Positions 13,864 through 60,424 of a DNA stretch of 64,000 nucleotides are shown in pieces. The position numbers were made by a program, and so were the translations under genes. The stretch comes from an uncultured delta proteobacterium (lineage in GTDB: Bacteria > Myxococcota_A > Polyangia > Fen-1088). The DNA lies in assembly GCA_963796685.1 (NCBI GenBank), contig CAWCMR010000006.1, positions 224,001 through 288,000 of the forward strand, in the 5' to 3' direction. The stretch's first letter is position 1. The number at the start of each line of letters is the position of its first letter. The notes under the pieces are model-generated. The model ran no database searches, was not told the DNA's origin, and was given only the letters and a program-made list of their open reading frames with translations.

Positions 13864-14562
13864 ATGGACGCCTTCACCGAGTCAACAACACCACCAAGAT
13901 CCAGGTCATCATTTGACCTTGATCTTGGTGGTGTTGTTGACCCGTTGAAGGGGAACGCGTCCGCGCTGGTTACCACCGTGGGCGGCGACGATGCCCCAAA
14001 AGGTTCGGACATTGGCCGGCGGCTCGAACAACCCCCGCATCGTTCGAGCACGCCGGCCTGTGCCGATTATCTTGCCGTCCCGGTCCGGTATCTCACCACC
14101 GCCGAAGCGGCCGTCTATCTGCGCTATCGATCGGGTTCGGCTATCCGGAACTTGGTTGTCTCTGGGCGGCTGGTCCCCGCCGGGCGCCGTGGTCGCACAT
14201 ATCTATTCCGCACCGAGGACTTGGACGCTATGCTCGTGGGCAATGGCGCTCCTATGGCTCGGATGGGAGCAAGAAATGAAGACGAAGTATCCGGGTATCC
14301 ACATCATGGACGATGGCCGCAAACGTATCCGCCTACGTGTCATCGACCCAAGAACGGGGCGGAACAAGGAGGTAGACAAAATCATTACGGGGACGGTCCA
14401 GGAAGCCACCAAACTCCGGGAGGAGTGGCGGCTACAGATCCGCAACGCCGACCAAACGGCGAAGGACGTTCCACGGTTGGGCGCCTACGCCGAATCGTGG
14501 ATCGCGTCCAAAGCGCTGCGGCTCAAACCGTCGACGGCAACATGGTACGCCCAGCGGCTTGA
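13864..14562 (+). CDS. Excisionase-like HTH protein (true start and extent uncertain; HTH at about 14088-14235)
   Basis: YLTTAEAAVYLRYRSGSAIRNLVVSGRL..GRTYLFRTEDLD; 3' part overlaps the integrase. Confidence 0.6.
   Translation: MDAFTESTTPPRSRSSFDLDLGGVVDPLKGNASALVTTVGGDDAPKGSDIGRRLEQPPHRSSTPACADYLAVPVRYLTTAEAAVYLRYRSGSAIRNLVVSGRLVPAGRRGRTYLFRTEDLDAMLVGNGAPMARMGARNEDEVSGYPHHGRWPQTYPPTCHRPKNGAEQGGRQNHYGDGPGSHQTPGGVAATDPQRRPNGEGRSTVGRLRRIVDRVQSAAAQTVDGNMVRPAA
13881..13941. repeat. Hairpin with 28-bp arms
   Basis: GTCAACAACACCACCAAGATCCAGGTCA-TCATT-TGACCTTGATCTTGGTGGTGTTGTTGAC, one mismatch. Confidence 0.95.
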
Positions 14563-51062: not shown

Positions 51063-51946
51063 TCAGCCAGCCGTCACCGAGAAGTTGGTGACCGCGAACG
51101 TGGCGTCCGCGCCGCCGGTCGACACCAACTCGACCCCGTAGTCGATGGCTCCGAGCGTGGAGCTGGCGGGGATCCAGCCCTTGCCGATGATGCAATCGAA
51201 GAACGACAGCAGGTTCACGGTGCCCGAGGTCACGTTCGTGGTGTCGACGAAGGCGATGTAGCTGCCACTCTTGTAGACGTCGTACGTTTGCCCGTCGAAG
51301 GTGACGGTGTCTTGGCGCGAACCCGAGGGCACCTGGTGGTAATTGTCCGTCCAGATCATCACCTCGGTGGCGCCGCTGCTGGCGACGCCGTTGAGCCCAA
51401 TATCGTAGGCGAGCTCGTAGATTCCGACCTGCGGCGCGGTGTGCGCAAAGCTACTTGAAAGGGTGGTAAACGAGCTGATCGCGGGCGCGTTGTTGAAGTC
51501 CTTGTGAACGTTGGGGTAGGTCTTGACGGCTCCGTCGCCGCTGTCGTTGTTCATCGTGGCGATCACGTACCAGTTGTTGTAGTCGCAGACGTACATGGTC
51601 TGCGACACCTGGTAGCCGGCTGCGTTCCAGGTGTCCGTATCCAGGTAATAACCGCTCAGCGTGATGCCGTCCTGGGGGTTGGACGCATTCATCGGCAAGA
51701 CGTGCGTAGGATTCGTGCAAGTCTGCGACACCGCCGAAGTACCGCCGGTCGAGGTCCCAGGCCCCCCAGCAGCGCCGCCAGCGCCGCCTCCCATCCCGGC
51801 GCCACCCATACCGCCACTTCCACCGGAGCTGGACACCCCAGCGCCGCCGGAAGCGGTGACAAGGCCGCCGTCCGTCGTGGATGTCGGGTTGGAACCGCCG
51901 CAACAGCAGAGCACAGTGAGCGCCGCGAGCAGCAGCGTGGGTCCAT
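51063..51946 (-). CDS. GH12 glycoside hydrolase (start uncertain, probably frameshifted at the N-terminus)
   Basis: VKTYPN, AYDI, EVMIW, YGVE; Gly-rich linker. Confidence 0.8.
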
Positions 51947-52005
51947 CGGGCGGCCATCTGCGGCCGACCGTCCGCTTCAACGGCTTTGGCGGCGCTTCCG
52001 CGATG

Positions 52006-52371
52006 TCATTTCTCGTCGGAATGATCGTCGCCCTCCTCCTTGGAGTACCAGTTCGCGAGCTCGATCCCGCCACGAAGGATCTCCAGAATCTCGGGGCCAG
52101 CCTCGGTTTCGCTGATTATTCCGTTGGCGATAGCGCCGGCTACAGCCAGCTCGATGGCGTCTCCGGTGTATGTGGTGAAGAGCCGGCGATTGGGGCCTTG
52201 ATGGAATTCGTGGATCCGCTGGTCCAGGTCGTGGGCGGTTATCGCGCCGCTGCGCCATCGAGCGAGCTCCCCGTCGAGGGTCGTCAGCTCCCGAGAGAGT
52301 TCTCGGTCGTAGGCAATGCCCGCGAGCTCGCGGATGCGCCGTCGCCGTGATTTTGTGAGATCTCGCCTCAT
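52006..52371 (-). CDS. Cassette-borne hypothetical protein
   Basis: GAGGAG RBS right after core GTTCGCC; followed by a degenerate attC half at about 51955-51995. Confidence 0.8.
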   Translation of the reverse strand: MRRDLTKSRRRRIRELAGIAYDRELSRELTTLDGELARWRSGAITAHDLDQRIHEFHQGPNRRLFTTYTGDAIELAVAGAIANGIISETEAGPEILEILRGGIELANWYSKEEGDDHSDEK

Positions 52372-52386
52372 GCCATCTCCTCGTCC

Positions 52387-52556
52387 GGCGAACGTCCTGG
52401 CGTTCAGCAGCAAGGGCGGAGGTAACCACCTTCAACGGGAGCCCAAGCGTGCCATCTGGTCCCGTCCCAGAAGGGCATAAGCAAGGGCTGCCGGCCATTG
52501 AGCTGCGAAAGATCGAGATAGGGGATATCGCTCAGGCTGATCAAATGGAGAGTCAT
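52387..52556 (-). pseudogene. Truncated cassette: 50-aa gene remnant fused to a half attC
   Basis: ATG 52556 MTLHLISLSDIPYLD... runs directly into GCTGCTGAACGCCAGGACGTTCGCC; the R''/L'' half is missing. Confidence 0.65.
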
Positions 52557-52566
52557 GGCTTGGTCG

Positions 52567-52673
52567 GGCTAACGCTTTGCCGTTCAGCTGCGAGCCCGTC
52601 GCACGAACGGTTCGTTGATGTTACTCCGATTTCCCTGCGGCGGGTTCGTCAGTCTGCAACGGCTTGGTTAGCC
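52567..52673 (-). other. attC site
   Basis: R'' GGCTAAC ... R' GTTAGCC with inverted L boxes. Confidence 0.92.
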
Positions 52674-52959
52674 ATCGCCAAGTTCGAGCCGACGACGCCA
52701 CGCCCTCGGATTGCGGCTGCCATGAAAGCAGGCAATCACCACGACGCACTCTGGATAGACTCGATACAGAAGCCCAAAGGGAAACCGACGAATCGGCGCG
52801 CGACGAACGTCCCGGTAGAGAATCTGGTAGGACTCGGGCAGTTCGGAGATCGCGTTTGCAGCATGGGTAGCTGCACGAAGGAACTCAGCGCCGCTCATAC
52901 CAACCGTTCGCGTCAGCCAGATCGGCCTCGGCTGCTGGCCGAAGAATGACCGGCTTCAC
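52668..52959 (-). pseudogene. RelE/ParE toxin with a frameshifting lesion
   Basis: VKPVILRPAAEADLADANGWYERR* and, in another frame, AEFL...RRFPFGLLY...IACFHGSRNP. Confidence 0.8.
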
Positions 52960-53174
52960 CGTGAAGAGCCGATGCGACGAACCGCCTCGTCCCAGGCTGT
53001 GCCAGTCGGGCCTTCACGTTCCAGATCATCGAGGCGACCGTCGAGCTCTTCCCGCTGCGCTGGGGTCAAGGGAAGCAAGCTCGCAGCGGAACCAATGCTG
53101 TCCCAGAGCCTCCCGATCAGATCCAAACGCTCATCGGTACTGAGACGATCTACATCGATAGCTGGCATGGCCAT
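52956..53174 (-). CDS. Addiction-module antitoxin
   Basis: LSTDERLDLIGRLWDSI...LTPAQREELDGRL...WDE; GTGA overlap with the toxin. Confidence 0.88.
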   Translation of the reverse strand: MAMPAIDVDRLSTDERLDLIGRLWDSIGSAASLLPLTPAQREELDGRLDDLEREGPTGTAWDEAVRRIGSSR

Positions 53175-53228
53175 GAACGTAGTATTCCACACTGCATCTG
53201 TCCTGCCAACCTGCACGCCGTAGCGTAT

Positions 53229-53329
53229 GGCTAACGCTTTGCCGTTCAGCGGCGCGGGCGCCGCACGAGCGGTTCGTTGATGTTACTCCGATTTCCCTGC
53301 GGCGACTGCGCTGCAACGGCTTGTTCGAC
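53229..53329 (-). other. attC site
   Basis: R'' GTCGAAC ... R' GTTAGCC. Confidence 0.92.
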
Positions 53330-53600
53330 GGCGAACCCTCGTCCTTGTGAGCCTTCGAGATTCATCACTATCGCCGCCGCTGCCGGCACCATGCTTCGCC
53401 GACCTGCCGCGGTTGCCGCCGCAAGCATTGATCGCTGCCGCAAGTGGCACGAACGGCGACGCCCAGTCGCACGCCGACCAGAGATGTCGTCCCGTCCGAG
53501 CCCTCAGATACCGTCACCTTCCAAGTAGTTTGTCCGTCGAACGCCTTGCCGTTAAGCTGCGAGCGGCCGTCCGCGGCCGATCGACAGCTTCAACGGCTTG

Positions 53601-55577
53601 GTGATGCCTGGAGGTACCCATGAAACCATAAGGTGAAAGTCCTGAAGCGGTAGAAGATCGAAGCCGCATAGCTTGGGTGGCGCCGACATGGGAAATCCTG
53701 GCGGCGAAGCCCACCGACAAAGCCCCGCATGGCGGGGCGAGCAAGGGCGCGGGCCGCAACGACGAGTGAACGTCTGGACAAGGCCCCGAGATGAAGGAAC
53801 CCCGGGTGCCGAGCTGGCCAAGTAGGGGCGAAGGCAGTAGGTGACTCCAAACGCGATCTGGGGAGGCACCGCCCGGCGGGGTAAAGGACGGCAGCACGCG
53901 CTCAAGGTCATGGGAGAAAACAGGGAAGGGCTCCTCGCCCCGTGGAGAAAGCCCACGGAAGCAAGGTAGTCGCGCGAGCCGGAAGGCGAAGTGCGGTGAA
54001 GGCGAGAGCCTGACGGATGGGTCCGTATGAGCGAGGAAGCGGGGTAACGCCCGCGGAGCAAAGGGGCCCTGCCGGAGGCAATCGGAGCAGAGAAGCGAGG
54101 CAAGAGCGGGATGACAAAGCCCACCATCAGTTTGCAAGAACTTCGAGCGAAGATAGGCCAACGGGCGAAGTCCGCCCCTGCGCATCGCTTTTGGGGATTA
54201 CACGTCCACATCAAGAAACTCGAAACGCTCGAAGCGGCGTACCTGGAGGCCAAGCGCAATGGCGGAGCCCCTGGGTCAGACGGCGAGACGTTCGAGATGA
54301 TTGAGGCGCAGGGCCGAGGAGAGTTTCTCGCGAAACTCGCCGAGGAACTGCGCGCGGACATGTACCACCCGAGGCCGTATCGACGAAGAGAGATTCCCAA
54401 GGAGGGCGGCAAAGTCCGCGTGATTTCGATTCCTGCGATTCGAGACCGCGTGGTGCAAGGCGCCCTTCGGCTGATTGTGGAACCAATCTTCGAAGCCGAC
54501 TTCTCGGACAGCTCGTATGGGGCTAGGCCGGGACGAAGCGCGCATGAGGCAAGCGAGAAAGTGCGAATGGGATTGCGCCAGGGCCGACACCGCGTGGTCG
54601 ACGTCGACCTGTCCCGCTACTTCGATACGATTCGGCATGACCGAATCTTGGCGAAGGTGGCAAGACGGGTTGTCGACAGCGATGTGCTGGCCATGGTGAA
54701 GCAGTTTCTCAAGAGCACCGGCGACCGAGGCGTGCCACAAGGCTCGCCGCTGTCACCCCTTCTCGCAAACCTCGCGCTCGACGACCTGGACCACGCCCTT
54801 GACCGAGGAGGCGGCACCATCACCTATGCGCGATACCTGGACGACATGGTCGTGCTCGCGGCCGACACCTCCAAAGGGCGGCAGTGGGCAGACCGAGCGC
54901 TCGTGCGCATCCGCCAAGAGGCGGAGGCCATCGGCGTGTCGCTCAACGCAGAGAAGACCCGTCTGGTCACGATAACGGAGCCAGGGGCGAGCTTTGCGTT
55001 TCTGGGATTCGAGTTTCGTTGGGAGCGGAAGCTCGAAGACTGGAAGATGGTATCCGAGCAGAACCCCGCGACCGAAGAAGGTCATCGCGGTCCTACAGGA
55101 AGTTGGGAGAATCTTGCGCAGGAGCCGCCACTTGCCTATGCCAGGGGCGGTTGCGCAGGTGAATTCTGTCCTGCGGGGTTGGGTGAACTACTTTCGTGTC
55201 GGCAACTCGGGGACGGCGTTCGGCAAAATCAAGTACGAGGTCGAACGCAAGGTGAGGCGACTGGCGGCCAAGAAGTGCAAGCGCAAGGGATTCGGCTGGA
55301 AGCGGTGGAGTAGCGCCGTGGTGTACGGAACGTGGGGCCTCTTTCGAGACTACCGCGTGGTGTACTGGAGCGCGAAAGCATGCCCCGGCGGAACGGACGC
55401 ATAACCCCGATGGAAGACGCCTTCGCGGTGAGCCGGATGCGGGAAATCCGCCTGTCCGGTTCGATGTGGCGGGGGCCGGAGACGGAGTGATGGAACCTCT
55501 AAACGGGCACGAAGCCGGAAACGGCGGACACAGCCAAGGGGCATCCTGCACACCACCGCGCCGGTCCCCGACCCGAC
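53601..55577 (+). mobile_element. Group II intron
   Basis: 5' GTGATG; domain V GAGCCGGATGCGGGAAATCCGCCTGTCCGGTTC; long domain VI ending CCCGAC; RT ORF inside. Confidence 0.92.
54111..55404 (+). CDS. ltrA: Group II intron RT/maturase, frameshift near 55030, no endonuclease domain
   Basis: IPAIRDRVVQ, PQGSPLSP, RYLDD, FLGF; maturase LRGWVNYF in the second frame. Confidence 0.9.
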
Positions 55578-55589
55578 TTCGACAGCCTA

Positions 55590-56045
55590 CTACAGTTCCT
55601 CGGCAACACGTTTCCACCAACTGTCCCGGGTCATCCGATACTTCTCGACGCGCTCGCAGAGGTCGGCGCCAGGAGCCGTGCATACATAGTTACCCCGCTC
55701 CCAGGATGACGTCTTGGTGTAGCCCATTTCCGTCATGATGTCGAAGGCCTCACTGTACGTGAGAGCGAACGTAGCCGTTTTCGACACGTCATCGAGATTC
55801 CAAACATACGCAATCAGCAGATTAGGGAACTTCGCGTATTTCTGGTCGAGGCCAAAGCTTCGATTGCTTGCAGCCTTCATCTGTATGGGGCGCGCTCGAA
55901 ATGTTGGGACACTGGAGAGCAGATCGGCGTAGGCGATGAGGTCGACGCTACGGTCTCGGAGAGGCAGGGACACCTCAAGCCCGGAACGGATCAACTCGCC
56001 GACGAGATGATTGCGTCCGAGCAGCTCAACAATCTGTGAATCCAT
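55590..56045 (-). CDS. Cassette protein, PD-(D/E)XK nuclease-like
   Basis: VDLIAY...IQMKAAS; AGGAG RBS after the core site. Confidence 0.7.
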   Translation of the reverse strand: MDSQIVELLGRNHLVGELIRSGLEVSLPLRDRSVDLIAYADLLSSVPTFRARPIQMKAASNRSFGLDQKYAKFPNLLIAYVWNLDDVSKTATFALTYSEAFDIMTEMGYTKTSSWERGNYVCTAPGADLCERVEKYRMTRDSWWKRVAEEL

Positions 56046-56063
56046 GCAGATGCTCCTTGGTCT

Positions 56064-56167
56064 GTCGAACGCTTTGCCGTTCAGCAGCGGGGGTGCCGCC
56101 GAACCGGCGACCGGATTCTACACGATGCCCCTGCGGCACCACCGTCTGCTGCAACGGCTTGTTAGGC
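56064..56167 (-). other. attC site
   Basis: R'' GCCTAAC (contains the gene's stop codon) ... R' GTTCGAC. Confidence 0.92.
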
Positions 56168-57487
56168 GCCGCCCTTCGCCTTCGCGAGCCATGACTTGTA
56201 TTCTGCTCTTTGGGCCGTAGGGACGGACTGACGATCCAACAGCGCTACGAGCTCTCGATAACGAGCTGTGCAGTTCGGATTATTGGCCATCCGTTTACCA
56301 AGAACAACGGATGTCTTGGGTGCTTCAAGCATCAAGCCGATCTCCCGGGGAGAGAAGTTCCGGATCATCTTTTCGTAAGCGGACGTTGCGCCCCGAGAGA
56401 ATCCCCAAGGATTTCCCACAGCGCAAATGACGACGGCCTCGACATACTCAGGCTGAACGGTCTCTGGAAGAGCGCCTTGTCCAGCCAGCTCGGCGAGCTG
56501 GTCTGCAAATGGAGGCTCGTTATAGAAGTTGTTGAACTCGTTATGCACGGCCAGGAGGCGTTGACAGACGCGGGAAATGAGGCCATGGCGTTCCATGTCG
56601 CTTAGCAGAGCAAAGATACCCAGCTTGGTGAAGAATGTCCGCGAGGCCTTCTGCCGGTCGACCTTGCCTTCGGCGACGTATTCGTTATGTCGATTAATTA
56701 GCTCCGACTTCGTCTTGTCAGAGAAGGTTTGAGAGAAACCTTTGCAGATATCCAGGCAATTGACTCGCGTTTCCTCTGAGGAGTTCGGATCACAGAAGAC
56801 TCCGTGGAGCATCGCAAAGATGAAATCGCGTTGGGAATTATGCGTTGCGCCGAGCCGCTCGATCCACTTCGAGGTCTGGGTCACTGAGAACTTTCCCGCC
56901 TTGAGCGCAGCCAGAAATGCCTGCGTATCGACACCCTTCGGGTTCGTGCCGGAGCCTAGGGCGTATTTCACGCACCGGTTCAGGAACGCCAGAAGCTCGT
57001 GGTCATCCAAGGTTCCGGTTGGAGGATGTGCCGACGAAAAGTTGTTTCTGACCTCTCGGCACTGGTTCAGAAAGAAGTGGGCTTCCTCATCTACCAGGTT
57101 GAGACTCAGGCATAGGTCGAGCAACTCCGAATCCTTAAGATCGCCCAGGGTCTCCTCTTCGAACGGCTTGCGCGTAATCTGGGCCACGACAGAGAGCCCG
57201 AAGCCTCTTACTTTCTCGCGGAGAGCAACCACGGACGAGTTCCAAGCATAGTTTACAGCTGCGTCGAATAGACCCGCAGCGACCGCCACACACAAACGGG
57301 CATGTTGCGCCGTCAACTTGTCTTTCGGAATCCCACCAATCACGCGTGGAAGGGACTGCCAGGCATGGGCGATCTCGTCGTCCGCAGCGAGCAGCTCGCG
57401 CGGAAGCGAGAGAGCCGCAGTCAGCCTCGCGAGCAGGTCACCGCTCGATCCGGTTACATCTGGGAGCTTGATGAGTTCCTTCTTCAT
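56162..57487 (-). CDS. Cassette protein with a HEPN-like motif
   Basis: 441 aa; AAVNYAWN...REVRNNFSSAH; stop codon inside the attC R''. Confidence 0.75.
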   Translation of the reverse strand: MKKELIKLPDVTGSSGDLLARLTAALSLPRELLAADDEIAHAWQSLPRVIGGIPKDKLTAQHARLCVAVAAGLFDAAVNYAWNSSVVALREKVRGFGLSVVAQITRKPFEEETLGDLKDSELLDLCLSLNLVDEEAHFFLNQCREVRNNFSSAHPPTGTLDDHELLAFLNRCVKYALGSGTNPKGVDTQAFLAALKAGKFSVTQTSKWIERLGATHNSQRDFIFAMLHGVFCDPNSSEETRVNCLDICKGFSQTFSDKTKSELINRHNEYVAEGKVDRQKASRTFFTKLGIFALLSDMERHGLISRVCQRLLAVHNEFNNFYNEPPFADQLAELAGQGALPETVQPEYVEAVVICAVGNPWGFSRGATSAYEKMIRNFSPREIGLMLEAPKTSVVLGKRMANNPNCTARYRELVALLDRQSVPTAQRAEYKSWLAKAKGGA

Positions 57488-57601
57488 GTGACTCCTCTCA
57501 AGTGCGCCTAAGGTCTCGCGCGAAAATAACTGATCGCATTAGTCTGATTGCGGCGTGACTGTGTAGTTCCAGTCACCTCTGAAACGGGCGGGGCGAAGAT
57601 T

Positions 57602-59013
57602 GGCTCTCCTGACATCTTCATGGAAGCGCGGGCACCTTGAAGACGGGATGAAGGACAACGCCTGAGCAGCAGAGGAAGATGAAGCCAATGAGGGCTTGAG
57701 CGTTGTGGAAGCCATAGGCCCTGCGGGTGATGACCCTGATCTTGCCATTAAGGCCCTCGGTTCTTCCGTTATTGAGCCCTGTGGCGACAATGGCCACGAT
57801 GCCGTCCAGGTATTTCTTGATGGTCGCGGCGACCTTCTTGAAGGAAGGTAGTCTGGATCGCCTGGCCCAACTGATCCATTCTTCGAGCTTCTGTTTGACG
57901 ACGTTGACCTGGCGACGACCGAGGATGTCGCAGATGGCGATCTTGAGCAGGTAGCCGCGATAGAGTCGGGCATTGGTCTTCGGGAGGGTCGAAAGCCTCT
58001 CAGACTCGGCCCTGGATAGGTTCCACGGATTCTTGAGCAGAAGGTACTTGGTCTTCTTCAGTTGCCCGCGTTCGTCGGTGTCCTCCAGGAGTCGGACCTC
58101 CGCACGCCGGAGCTCGTCGAGTGCTTCCTGCACGAGTCTCTGAACGTGGAAGCGGTCGAAGACGATCTGCGCTTGTGGCGCTCGCGAGGTGACCGCGTCG
58201 ATGTAGGCCGCGGACATGTCGATGGTGACGGTCTTGAGCTTGCTGGTTCGTTCCGGGCCGAGAGCGTCGAAGAAGCAGCCGAGCGTCGCAGCGTTCTTGC
58301 CCTCGTGGGCCCAGACGACCCGCTGCGAGACGTGGTCGACAACGACGGTGACGTACTCATGGTGCCGCCGGTACGACAACTCGTCGACGCCGATGTGTTC
58401 GAGGTCCTCGAGGAGAAGGCTAGGATTCTCGGTGCCGCGGCACCACCCGCTGGATGATGGCGCCGACGGTGCGCCACGCGATGCGCATGGTTTCGGCCAC
58501 CATCGTCTGGCTTGCTTGTTGGGCCAGATAGGCCACATGGTCCTCGAAGTCACGCGTGAAGCCGACCTTCGGCTCGGCCCAAGGGACCATCTCGATGACC
58601 ACGCCGCACCGAGGACAGTCAACCCTGCGCAGGGTGTAGCGCAGAAGAACCTCCATCCCGCACGCGTCCAGATGCCGCCAGTTCCGAGCCCGAGCATCGA
58701 ACACGTCATGGACCCGACATCCGCAGCCTGAGCAGTAGGGAACGGTCGTCGTTGGCGCCACGTGCACCAATATGCCAAGCAGATCGAATTCGACCGCCAG
58801 GACACGGGTATGTGGAAATTGGAGTAGGTTTCGGAATAGGGTGGTTGCGCGCATGGGCTCCTGGGCTTGTGGGTTCTAGACAAGCCACACGATACCCCAG
58901 GTGCCCGTGCGCACTTCGTCTCCACCTCACCCGAAACTCATGCCGCCCACATCTCCGTCGACGACGTGCGTCGCACCTACGAGATCTCCCCTTACGAAGA
59001 TGTCAGGAGAGCC
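57602..59013 (-). mobile_element. ISL3-family element nested in ISAzo13
   Basis: 18-bp IR GGCTCTCCTGACATCTTC; 8-bp duplication CGAAGATT at 57594-57601 and 59014-59021. Confidence 0.93.
57618..58854 (-). pseudogene. ISL3 transposase, frameshift near 58425
   Basis: Zn finger CSGC/CPRC in one frame; GVDE, IDMS, DRFH, EGLNGKI..RRAYGF in another. Confidence 0.88.
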
Positions 59014-60259
59014 CGAAGATTGACGGCTTCCATCTCCTCGTGTGCGACCTTGATTCCCTTTTTGTACGAGTTCCGGTCGGCGGCGGCGCGGATGTGGAGG
59101 CCCCGCTTTGTCGTTGTGGCTCCAATCAGATTGACGACGGTTTCGAGAGTCTCAAGCGGCCTCCCCCTCCAGTTCGCGGTGATGTGGCAGAACATCCGGT
59201 GTTCGATCTTGTTCCACTTGCTCGTCCCAGGCGGGTAGTGCGCTACTTGTATCCGCAATCCGCTCTCGTCCGCGAATTCCTGAAGTTCTGTCTTCCAAAG
59301 ACGCACTCGTGCCCCGTTGCTGCCACCTCCGTCCGCAGTGATGAGCAGCTCCTCCGCTTCCGGATACACTGCCTTGCCCATCCTCTTCCACCAACGACGG
59401 ATGGTTTCCACTGCAAACTCGGCGGTGTCGTGGTCAATCCCCACGCTCACCCAACCCTCGTTCCTTGCGAGGTCGTACACGCCATACGGAATCGCCTTGC
59501 CGAGTTCCTTGTCAATGAAGTCATGAACCCGGACGGGAACCGGCGAACCCTTCGGCTCCCATTCGCGGCCTCCGTTCTTGAAATCGCCCAGGTTCTCCTT
59601 CTTTTTGGTGTCGACAGAGATTACAGGCAGCCCCTTCGACTGGAACTCCTTCGCCCGGCGGTTGATGTACTCGAACTGGGCATCTCGGTCTGGATCCTGC
59701 TTGCCCTCTCTGGTCTTGTGGTTTGCCTGCAGACTGTAGTCCAGATCCACCAGTAGCTCTCGCACCTTGGTTGCGCTGACCGGGTGCCCCTGCGCTGTCA
59801 GTTCTTCAGCGAGGCGCCGCGTGCCTTTGCTTGTCCAACGAAGCGGCGATTCCGGATCTCCTCGTGTAGCGGGGTCGATCAGACGCTCAAGGGCTTTGAC
59901 CAGTTCTGGGTCCTGATCCTCAATGCGTTTGCGCCCAGCACCGGGGCGGCGCACCCTCTGTTCGCATGGTGCCGCCAATGGCGGCGTCTCCCGCTGCACC
60001 TGCAAATCTCTTTTCCCTGCAACGATTCTCTTGTGGCGCAGGCCGGTCGCGCGAGTGACGATGGCGACGCCGCCGCGACCCAGTGATTCTGCTTCCGCTG
60101 CGGCCCACAGTCGAATCTGGCGCTCATTCAAAATGGGCGTCAGATCACAAAAGAGCTTTCGAACCCGTTCCACTTCGTCCATATTGCGACACTCTTCCCT
60201 TTGAGTGCACAATATACGCAATTGTCCCTATATGCGCTCCTTTATTTACGCGCGAGACC

Positions 60260-60424
60260 TAACGCCCTGCCGTTCAGCGGCGAGGGCCGTAGGTGAAGGT
60301 CGATAGTAGCACTGCCGGGGCCGCGCGGCGGCCTTCCGATCATCAGATGAGCCGCGCGGCCCCGGCTCGTTGACCGTCGACCGAGAGTTGACAGGCCCTC
60401 GTCCGCTGCAACGGCATGTTCGAC
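60260..60424 (-). other. Long attC site (R' core split by ISAzo13; remainder at 57506-57511)
   Basis: R'' GTCGAAC, ATGCCGTTGCAGCGG ... CCGCTGAACGGCAGGGCGTTA|GGC. Confidence 0.88.

Follow-up and report, generated by a model that had tools for sequence, protein, structure and literature searches.

An ISAzo13-family insertion sequence at the crossover core of two attC sites in an uncultured delta proteobacterium: target preference or attC hot spot?

Introduction

Does an insertion sequence (IS) that lies exactly on the crossover core of an integron attachment site (attC) seek out such sites, or does it merely find its ordinary target there? This question is raised by a 64,000-nucleotide stretch of DNA from an uncultured delta proteobacterium (GenBank assembly GCA_963796685.1, contig CAWCMR010000006.1, positions 224,001 to 288,000), hereafter called the window, in which an IS of the ISAzo13 family interrupts the R' core of an attC in a cassette array. 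The original prediction, made from the letters of the window, took this junction as a sign of attC targeting by this IS family, and proposed that the IS might become part of the downstream cassette and move with it. Here, we describe the junction, its recurrence in the same genome and the target choice of related copies, and we lean towards ordinary transposition into short T(T/A)A targets within array DNA, possibly helped by a local hot spot.

Two kinds of attC parasites are known. The IS1111-attC group (ISPa21, ISPst6 and ISKpn4, members of the IS110/IS1111 family) is described as occupying a fixed position and orientation in attC and as interrupting arrays (PMC3001079, PMC11187229); within attC they are found close to its 5' end, in antisense orientation relative to the array (PMC3001079). 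Group IIC-attC introns are described as retroelements which enter the bottom strand and have an antisense orientation relative to the cassettes (PMC3001079). At least one IS is reported in 23% of complete integrons and in 12% of integrase-less attC clusters (PMC4889954). In the portions of the literature returned by our full-text search, no statement linking the ISAzo13 family with attC was found.

Results and Discussion

The insertion lies exactly at the R' crossover core

Before insertion the + strand of the target read GCC-TAA-C, corresponding to GTTAGGC on the - strand, i.e., the R' core of an attC of a 168-nt class (coordinates of all features are collected in Table 1). The TAA was duplicated, and on one side the duplication ends exactly at the known crossover point G↓TT; the predicted placement of the insertion precisely at the R' crossover core is therefore borne out by the sequence. 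The end of the IS supplies ACC in place of GCC, which turns the R' core GTTAGGC into GTTAGGT. As anticipated, this hybrid core still fits the consensus GTTRRRY (R, purine; Y, pyrimidine), and the fold of the site is also retained: the insertion alters only the outermost pair of the R box and leaves the AAC/GTT triplets and the bulges in place. The occupied attC, in its hybrid form, has a folding energy of -59.8 kcal/mol (z -8.55), and the 3' arm of its + strand contains two single-base bulges, T and C; the site is 96% identical to an uninterrupted attC elsewhere in the genome (G000:C25:1561303-1561460; the genome is denoted G000, and the window is G000:C6:224001-288000). It carries R'' and R' cores at its ends and a bulged, covarying hairpin between them, and arrays of such sites are associated with intI genes in this genome, all of which marks it as an integron attC. 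The anatomy of the attC as described originally needs one correction: the attC and its R' core stand, but the R'' core, GTCGAAC, deviates from the consensus at its fourth position, with G in place of Y.

Read along the top strand, the attC body is followed by the IS (transposase in sense), then by TTAGGC, an open reading frame (ORF) of 441 amino acids (aa), and the next attC. The start of the ORF is found 18 nt beyond the original R' core; at its other end, the stop codon TAA forms part of the R'' core of the next attC (GCCTAAC, - strand). This geometry places the IS on the same side of the G↓TT crossover as the downstream cassette, as had been proposed. If the integrase (IntI) still uses the hybrid site, the IS, the 441-aa gene and the next attC would form one long cassette, and judged from this arrangement it is plausible that the IS might hitch-hike as part of the downstream cassette.

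The element is a new member of the ISAzo13 family

The IS has terminal inverted repeats GGTCTCGCGCG[A/T]AAATAA, which match at 17 of 18 positions. The sole Pfam match of its transposase is DDE_Tnp_ISAZ013 (E-value 3.3e-140; 466.9 bits with a cut-off of 26.9), and a protein-atlas look-up of the transposase returned just the family name; the gene points in the same direction as the cassette array. The genome contains four further copies, which are 1328 bp long, 98.5-99.9% identical and carry one open frame of 422 codons; the same 1328 bp remain when a nested ISL3 element (1412 bp) and its 8-bp duplication are subtracted from the 2748 bp of the window copy. This length falls within the size range of the family. 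The DDE_Tnp_ISAZ013 domain, the 3-bp duplication, and the inverted repeats around a single ORF together place the element in the ISAzo13 family, for which a 3-bp target duplication is described as the rule (PMC10045372). Within the family it represents a new IS species; the nearest members found in related genomes share ~50-60% protein identity. It further differs in that the window copy carries the nested ISL3 and that two copies of the lineage sit in attC cores. The single ISAzo13 element assumed originally is thus correct as to family, but the structure is composite, with the ISL3 element inside it. The ISL3 insertion has removed the last residues of the transposase, which covers profile positions 1-294 of 308, compared with 1-308 in the intact copies.

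A second copy occupies the same attC nucleotide

Five copies of the IS are present in the genome, all flanked by TAA or TTA. One of them (G000:C10:8368-9695) is inserted at the same attC nucleotide (GGC-TAA-C) and in the same orientation relative to attC as the window copy. It sits in an attC of 71 nt, which scores 85.5 bits with our covariance model, and since both of its flanks differ from those of the window copy, the two represent separate sites. The downstream flanks of the two attC-borne copies differ right after TTAG, and no trace of co-movement of IS and cassette was seen in their comparison. A third copy (C25:1563173) lies inside a cassette, 35 nt outside an attC, and the remaining two (C25:732975 and C5:282792) are located elsewhere, with TTA duplications. 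Altogether, three of the five copies are not in an attC core, and three of the five are in arrays. Inspection of the flanks of related copies for attC, which the original prediction had proposed as a check, therefore gives a divided answer: a second R'-core hit was found on C10, but most other copies are outside attC.

Related copies give no support for attC targeting by the family

A sister genome (G002) holds one full copy (98% identity), located outside an attC core, and a miniature inverted-repeat transposable element (MITE) with the same terminal repeats as the IS, in seven copies of ~155 bp (L069-L075) flanked by TAA, TTA or TGA. All seven MITEs lie outside attC cores, and two of them are inserted in cassettes, at distances of 57 and ~130 nt from an attC. 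When the five genome copies, the full copy of G002 and the seven MITEs are taken together, 2 of 13 lineage insertions are in an attC core. Unoccupied attCs with GSCTAAC (S, G or C), 54 in number, were found in 9 of the 13 genomes of the genus, ten of them in G002, all eight insertions of which lie elsewhere.

A Pfam search of 89 genomes of the bacterial family gave 50 ISAzo13-type matches in 17 genomes, 44 of them outside this lineage. We examined the surroundings of 41 of these 44, in 16 related genomes (three copies at contig ends were left out). Only one of the 41 lies in an attC (G004:C11, L326), and its target is a TAA in the L box (GCCGT-TAA-GCTG), not the R' core; a copy in G001 (L013) lies inside a cassette. 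The hybrid-core signature HCCTAACGNNNTGSCGTT occurs only at the two junctions of G000 and in none of the 88 other genomes of the bacterial family, a search that hybrids formed by IS ends starting with GGC would escape. ACCGAAC cores at G000:C10:1976 and C22:236313 were considered as footprints of the IS and rejected, as the sequence upstream of them is not an IS end. The proposed targeting of attC by the ISAzo13 family is thus not borne out, given 2 of 13 lineage insertions in cores and 1 of 41 other copies in an attC, and most copies lie at TAA or TTA targets with no bias towards attC.

Metagenomes and genome collections were also scanned with an IS end pattern, GGNNTCGCGCGWAAATAA. The pattern is permissive and matched at least 232 loci; among the matches listed, one locus (L249) resembles the IS beyond the pattern, and 40 listed matches preceded by TWA (W, A or T) look like true family ends. 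An abutting attC was sought at 39 of the listed TWA-preceded ends: 32 had no GTT at the junction, and of the seven with a GTTA flank two had no AAC partner and five had arm energies of -5 to -14 kcal/mol, compared with -30.9 kcal/mol in the window. We give this test almost no weight, since only 4 of the 39 listed ends (L184, L216, L249 and L295) are of the TAAATAA type, which is the end lying against the attC body in G000, and the other 35 would point away from it. Four soil-metagenome runs from one study hold the IS at ~98% identity, together with ISL3. The window locus, intact or empty, is absent from the contigs of these four runs, and the few loose IS-end flanks in them are not attC-like. 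The records of three listed candidate ends contain MITE blooms and no attC junctions.

As a separate observation, the end motif GGGCTCGCGCAAAAATAA occurs hundreds of times in G152 and G153 (L335-L353), two unrelated genomes labelled Chromatiaceae and Deltaproteobacteria. With up to three mismatches the counts are 232+241 and 183+161, compared with 59-87 for the reversed control, and many motifs form inverted pairs ~160-180 bp apart. To judge from these repeats, they look like blooms of ISAzo13-derived MITEs, with a terminal repeat conserved across phyla.

The family duplicates T(T/A)A, a target enriched in arrays

We tabulated 30 insertion sites of the family, excluding the two R' hits; in 5 of the 30 the two flanks are unequal (TTA/TAA), which makes their ends less certain. 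The TWA is preceded by C and followed by G at 11 of the 30 sites, has one of these two neighbours at 15 and neither at 4. In the background of 17577 TAA and TTA sites of the genome, the same classes hold 867 (4.9%), 6316 (35.9%) and 10394 (59.1%) sites. The ISAzo13 family duplicates T(T/A)A with a preference for C-TWA-G. Such TWA sites occur at 2.4 per kb genome-wide and at 5.6 per kb in the arrays, and 15 attCs of the genome have TAA in the R' core, two of which are occupied.

How surprising the recurrence is depends on what is taken as given. Finding at least three of five copies in arrays has p ~1e-4, by arithmetic from the genome TWA counts. Among the TWA sites of arrays, the R' TAA makes up 4.0%, or 4.8% when weighted by flank preference. 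Given array location, at least two R' hits have p 0.005-0.007 for the three array copies of the genome, p 0.015-0.02 for the five array insertions of the lineage, and p 0.03-0.04 for the seven array insertions of the family that we observed. The question that we regard as the fair one, i.e., how often at least one further hit would be found after the first had been flagged, gives p 0.08-0.26. The recurrence is more than chance in that the position used in one attC is occupied in another as well, but the size of the excess depends on the null model.

Elements of the ISAzo13 family were found at two places (G000:C25:1258000-1260400; locus L317) precisely at the TWA that borders the end of another member (...GATCAAAGGCC-TAA-GG...), which suggests that the family may like sequences resembling its own end junctions.

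Both occupied attCs share a spacer

Both occupied attCs read TAACGCCCTG next to the IS (window 60260-60269; G000:C10:8358-8367). This sequence is present at six sites in the genome, of which two are occupied and four are empty, two of the empty ones being attC-like. No other insertion site of the lineage, and none of the tabulated family sites, resembles CGCCC beside TWA. We considered that the IS ends might extend to include TAACGCCCTG and rejected this, as the other three copies end at GAGACC. The shared spacer favours either a hot spot defined by local sequence or a conversion event linking the two junctions, and it speaks against pure chance.

Explanations of the recurrent insertion

From the observed anatomy, duplications, recurrence and family-wide target rule we infer why insertions end up at R' cores, and likewise any activity of the integrase on the hybrid site. 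The account we would bet on, though with no great assurance, is ordinary TWA-directed transposition of the IS into IS-tolerant array DNA, with the R' TAA as an opportunistic target and possibly a local hot spot. The DDE transposase would cut a T(T/A)A target, which happened to be the TAA within the R' core of an attC (GTTAGGC in the window). Such targets are scarce in this genome of 64.5% GC, and arrays offer TWA-richer, dispensable DNA in which mobile elements accumulate, so that R' cores with TAA would be among the targets that are both available and tolerated. The identical local sequence GC-TAA-CGCCCTG at the two hits may then reflect a local hot spot on top of the general rule, rather than dedicated homing to attC. 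Several points weigh against this account. The R' site satisfies the C-TWA-G preference on one side only, and both R'-core hits share their orientation. If all 17577 TWA sites are treated as equal, at least two of five copies at the 15 R' TAA sites have p ~7e-6. The spacer CGCCCTG is present in 2 of 2 occupied attCs, in none of the 70 other attCs of the genome and in none of the 54 unoccupied GSCTAAC attCs of the genus, a pattern that pure chance does not predict. Moreover, the conditional tests presuppose array location and may hide real targeting. The main rival account is a genuine hot spot of this lineage at the crossover TAA of a subset of attCs, which would be recognised through the extended sequence TAACGCCCTG or through an extruded hairpin, with fixed orientation, a rebuilt R' core that works and an IS that heads the next cassette. 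We regard this as possible but rather doubtful. In its favour are, besides the genome-wide p value and the shared spacer, the use of one nucleotide by two of five copies whose attCs belong to different classes (168 nt and 71 nt) and whose flanks are unrelated, the occupation of two of the six TAACGCCCTG sites in the genome, the third copy 35 nt from an attC, and the family member inside an attC stem in G004; yet 11 of the 13 lineage insertions are outside attC cores, CGCCC next to TWA is seen at no other insertion site, the remaining four TAACGCCCTG sites are empty, two of them attC-like, the hybrid signature is absent from the other 88 genomes, and the excess is modest once array location is given.

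The two junctions might also go back to a single insertion, the second having arisen when the integrase moved an IS cassette, or by homologous exchange or gene conversion. Given the known crossover point, an exchange at AA↓C of the hybrid core would put the IS next to any other attC, with the junction at precisely this nucleotide, and a conversion tract could account for the ten bases TAACGCCCTG that adjoin both copies. A moved cassette would be expected to share its downstream sequence, but the flanks part after TTAG and the 441-aa gene is single-copy in the genome. The shared spacer is on the attC-body side of the crossover and would not be carried along by an integrase exchange, and conversion accounts for it only if both insertions already existed. 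We therefore consider a single insertion quite unlikely. Less probable still, and in our opinion very improbable, is an assembly artefact in which a repeated IS was misplaced beside an attC: the IS and ISL3 are indeed multi-copy, and the assembly consists of 26 contigs with an estimated contamination of 6.5%, but both junctions lie inside one contig of 325 kb, a perfect 3-bp duplication splits the attC core, and the two halves of this core match up with each other and with the adjacent cassette. This applies to the C10 copy as well.

Comparison with known attC parasites

In its use of one fixed attC position and orientation by the window and C10 copies, the IS resembles the IS1111-attC group. 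It differs from that group in other respects: IS1111-attC elements have a DEDD transposase, are guided by seekRNA and have essentially all of their copies in the target, whereas here we find a DDE transposase, a 3-bp duplication and 2 of 13 lineage insertions in attC. The position is also different, namely the R' core at the 3' end of attC in sense orientation, in place of the antisense position at the 5' end, and the window IS can accordingly not be assigned to that group. Group IIC-attC introns likewise enter attCs at a fixed point, and one of them seems to lie two attCs further down the window array; it is inserted at G↓TT of an R'' core, in contrast to the R' core used by the ISAzo13 copy. 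Both kinds of known parasites enter the opposite end, in the opposite orientation. The usual IS within an integron lies anywhere in a cassette, whereas in the present case the crossover triplet itself is duplicated and a consensus core is restored.

Should the hot-spot explanation be true, the lineage would represent a second class of attC-associated IS, using a DDE transposase and forming duplications, mechanistically distinct from IS1111-attC, and the integron integrase could shuffle or export the IS at the head of the next cassette. Provided that the integrase still uses the hybrid site, an IS could pass from one array or replicon to another as the cargo of a cassette, and integrons would be vehicles for transposable elements too. 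As it stands, a TWA rule in a GC-rich genome combined with a dispensable array can mimic site-specific homing, which calls for caution in naming "attC-targeting" elements from one or two junctions.

Table 1. Features of the interrupted array and complete integrase genes of the genome (positions in the window unless a contig is given).
Feature	Position	Strand	Remarks
attC, 168-nt class	60257..60424	- (top strand)	hybrid R' 60257-60263 GTTAGGT; R'' 60418-60424 GTCGAAC (both on -)
Composite ISAzo13-family IS (1328-bp element + nested ISL3)	57512..60259	-	inverted repeats, duplication, PF07592, four intact copies
ISAzo13 transposase ORF	58992..60221	-	Pfam DDE_Tnp_ISAZ013 (PF07592)
Terminal inverted repeat, transposase 3' side	57512..57529		GGTCTCGCGCGAAAATAA
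Terminal inverted repeat, transposase 5' side	60242..60259		reverse complement GGTCTCGCGCGTAAATAA; abuts attC body
GCC + first TAA duplication copy (57509-57511)	57506..57511		left remnant of split R' core
Second TAA duplication copy	60260..60262
Nested ISL3-family IS	57602..59013	-	perfect 18-bp inverted repeats GGCTCTCCTGACATCTTC
ISL3 8-bp target duplication	57594..57601; 59014-59021		CGAAGATT
Downstream-cassette ORF, 441 aa	56162..57487	-	no Pfam match; own ribosome-binding site
Next attC	56064..56167	-	closes cassette now headed by IS
Complete intI genes	G000:C9:33503-34444; C22:232551-233489; C6:1518-2459		TIGR02249

attC sites and integrases of the genome

The genome comprises 7.31 Mb in 26 contigs, with ~64.5% G+C. 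Its attCs were counted by means of a covariance model built from 17 aligned shorter sites, together with an energy scan; the model recognises this attC family only. At least 72 sites were found, which make up nine arrays (of two or more attCs each) and six singles, and the arrays total 67 kb. The number 72 is a lower bound: five further copies of the long class turned up by similarity. In the stem of the 17 aligned attCs, 95.1% of the cells are paired (21-45% in slid controls), compensatory changes on both sides are found in 10 of the 27 stem pairs, with a score reached by none of 500 shuffles, and the AAC/GTT triplets are invariant.

The 168-nt class includes, besides the window site (60260-60424), copies at C25:1561303, C25:1558114, C8:659792, C8:671392, C22:236502 and C10:2165 (all G000). 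The copies are 86-96% identical, and their folded centre is far more conserved than a variable loop requires.

Three complete intI genes score above the TIGR02249 cut-off, each with an attC within ~1.1 kb. The attC beside the C22 gene opens an array of five attCs, and those nearest to the C9 and C6 genes are isolated in this census. We took as the bottom strand the one with a clean 5' arm and a bulged 3' arm, an assignment by which the array reads away from intI at all three genes. Both the bulges in the 3' arm of the + strand of the occupied attC and this orientation of arrays relative to intI confirm the - strand of the window as the top strand, in agreement with the polarity suggested at first. 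Each complete intI is transcribed towards its adjacent attC, in the same direction as the cassette top strand, which is the inverted-integrase layout; a fourth, partial intI copy is found at C9:115533-115910. The window array itself spans 51922-60424 and is integrase-less, with no intI nearby. ABC-transporter genes lie upstream of the occupied attC, which is therefore the first site of this array.

Other mobile elements in the arrays

The window array is a compact example of three stacked kinds of mobile elements: the ISAzo13 copy, the ISL3 within it, and a group II intron. The assignment of the nested element to ISL3 follows from matches to PF01610 (E-value 6.1e-71), PF13542 and PF14690, from its 8-bp duplication and from its inverted repeats. 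The transposase gene of this element is divided between two frames, with ORFs at 58420-58854 and 57618-58925. In three soil-metagenome runs, contigs join 57593 to 59014 and are without one base at 58426; this joint and the missing base mark the ISL3 as a secondary, frameshifted passenger. It is the extra base near 58426, relative to the copies in these three runs, that splits the transposase frame. There are 14 full-length ISL3 copies in the genome; five of the 14 are inside arrays, and one more is within 1 kb of an array.

The group II intron lies at 53536-55577 on the + (bottom) strand, with a reverse transcriptase ORF at 54111-55313 and matches to RF02003 (53627-53764) and RF00029 (55428-55534). 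The intron has entered the attC starting at 53536, at G↓TT of its R'' core, with the junction GGCTTG↓GTGATGCC, and looks like an intron of the group IIC-attC type. The same intron junction is found at G000:C8:666032, where an ISL3 copy (664570-665981) lies ~50 nt beyond, apparently inside the intron copy.

A near-perfect hairpin of 63 nt, unrelated to the attC family, is located at 13880-13942 of the window; its arms of ~27 nt pair at -33 to -34 kcal/mol in an arm-pairing scan.

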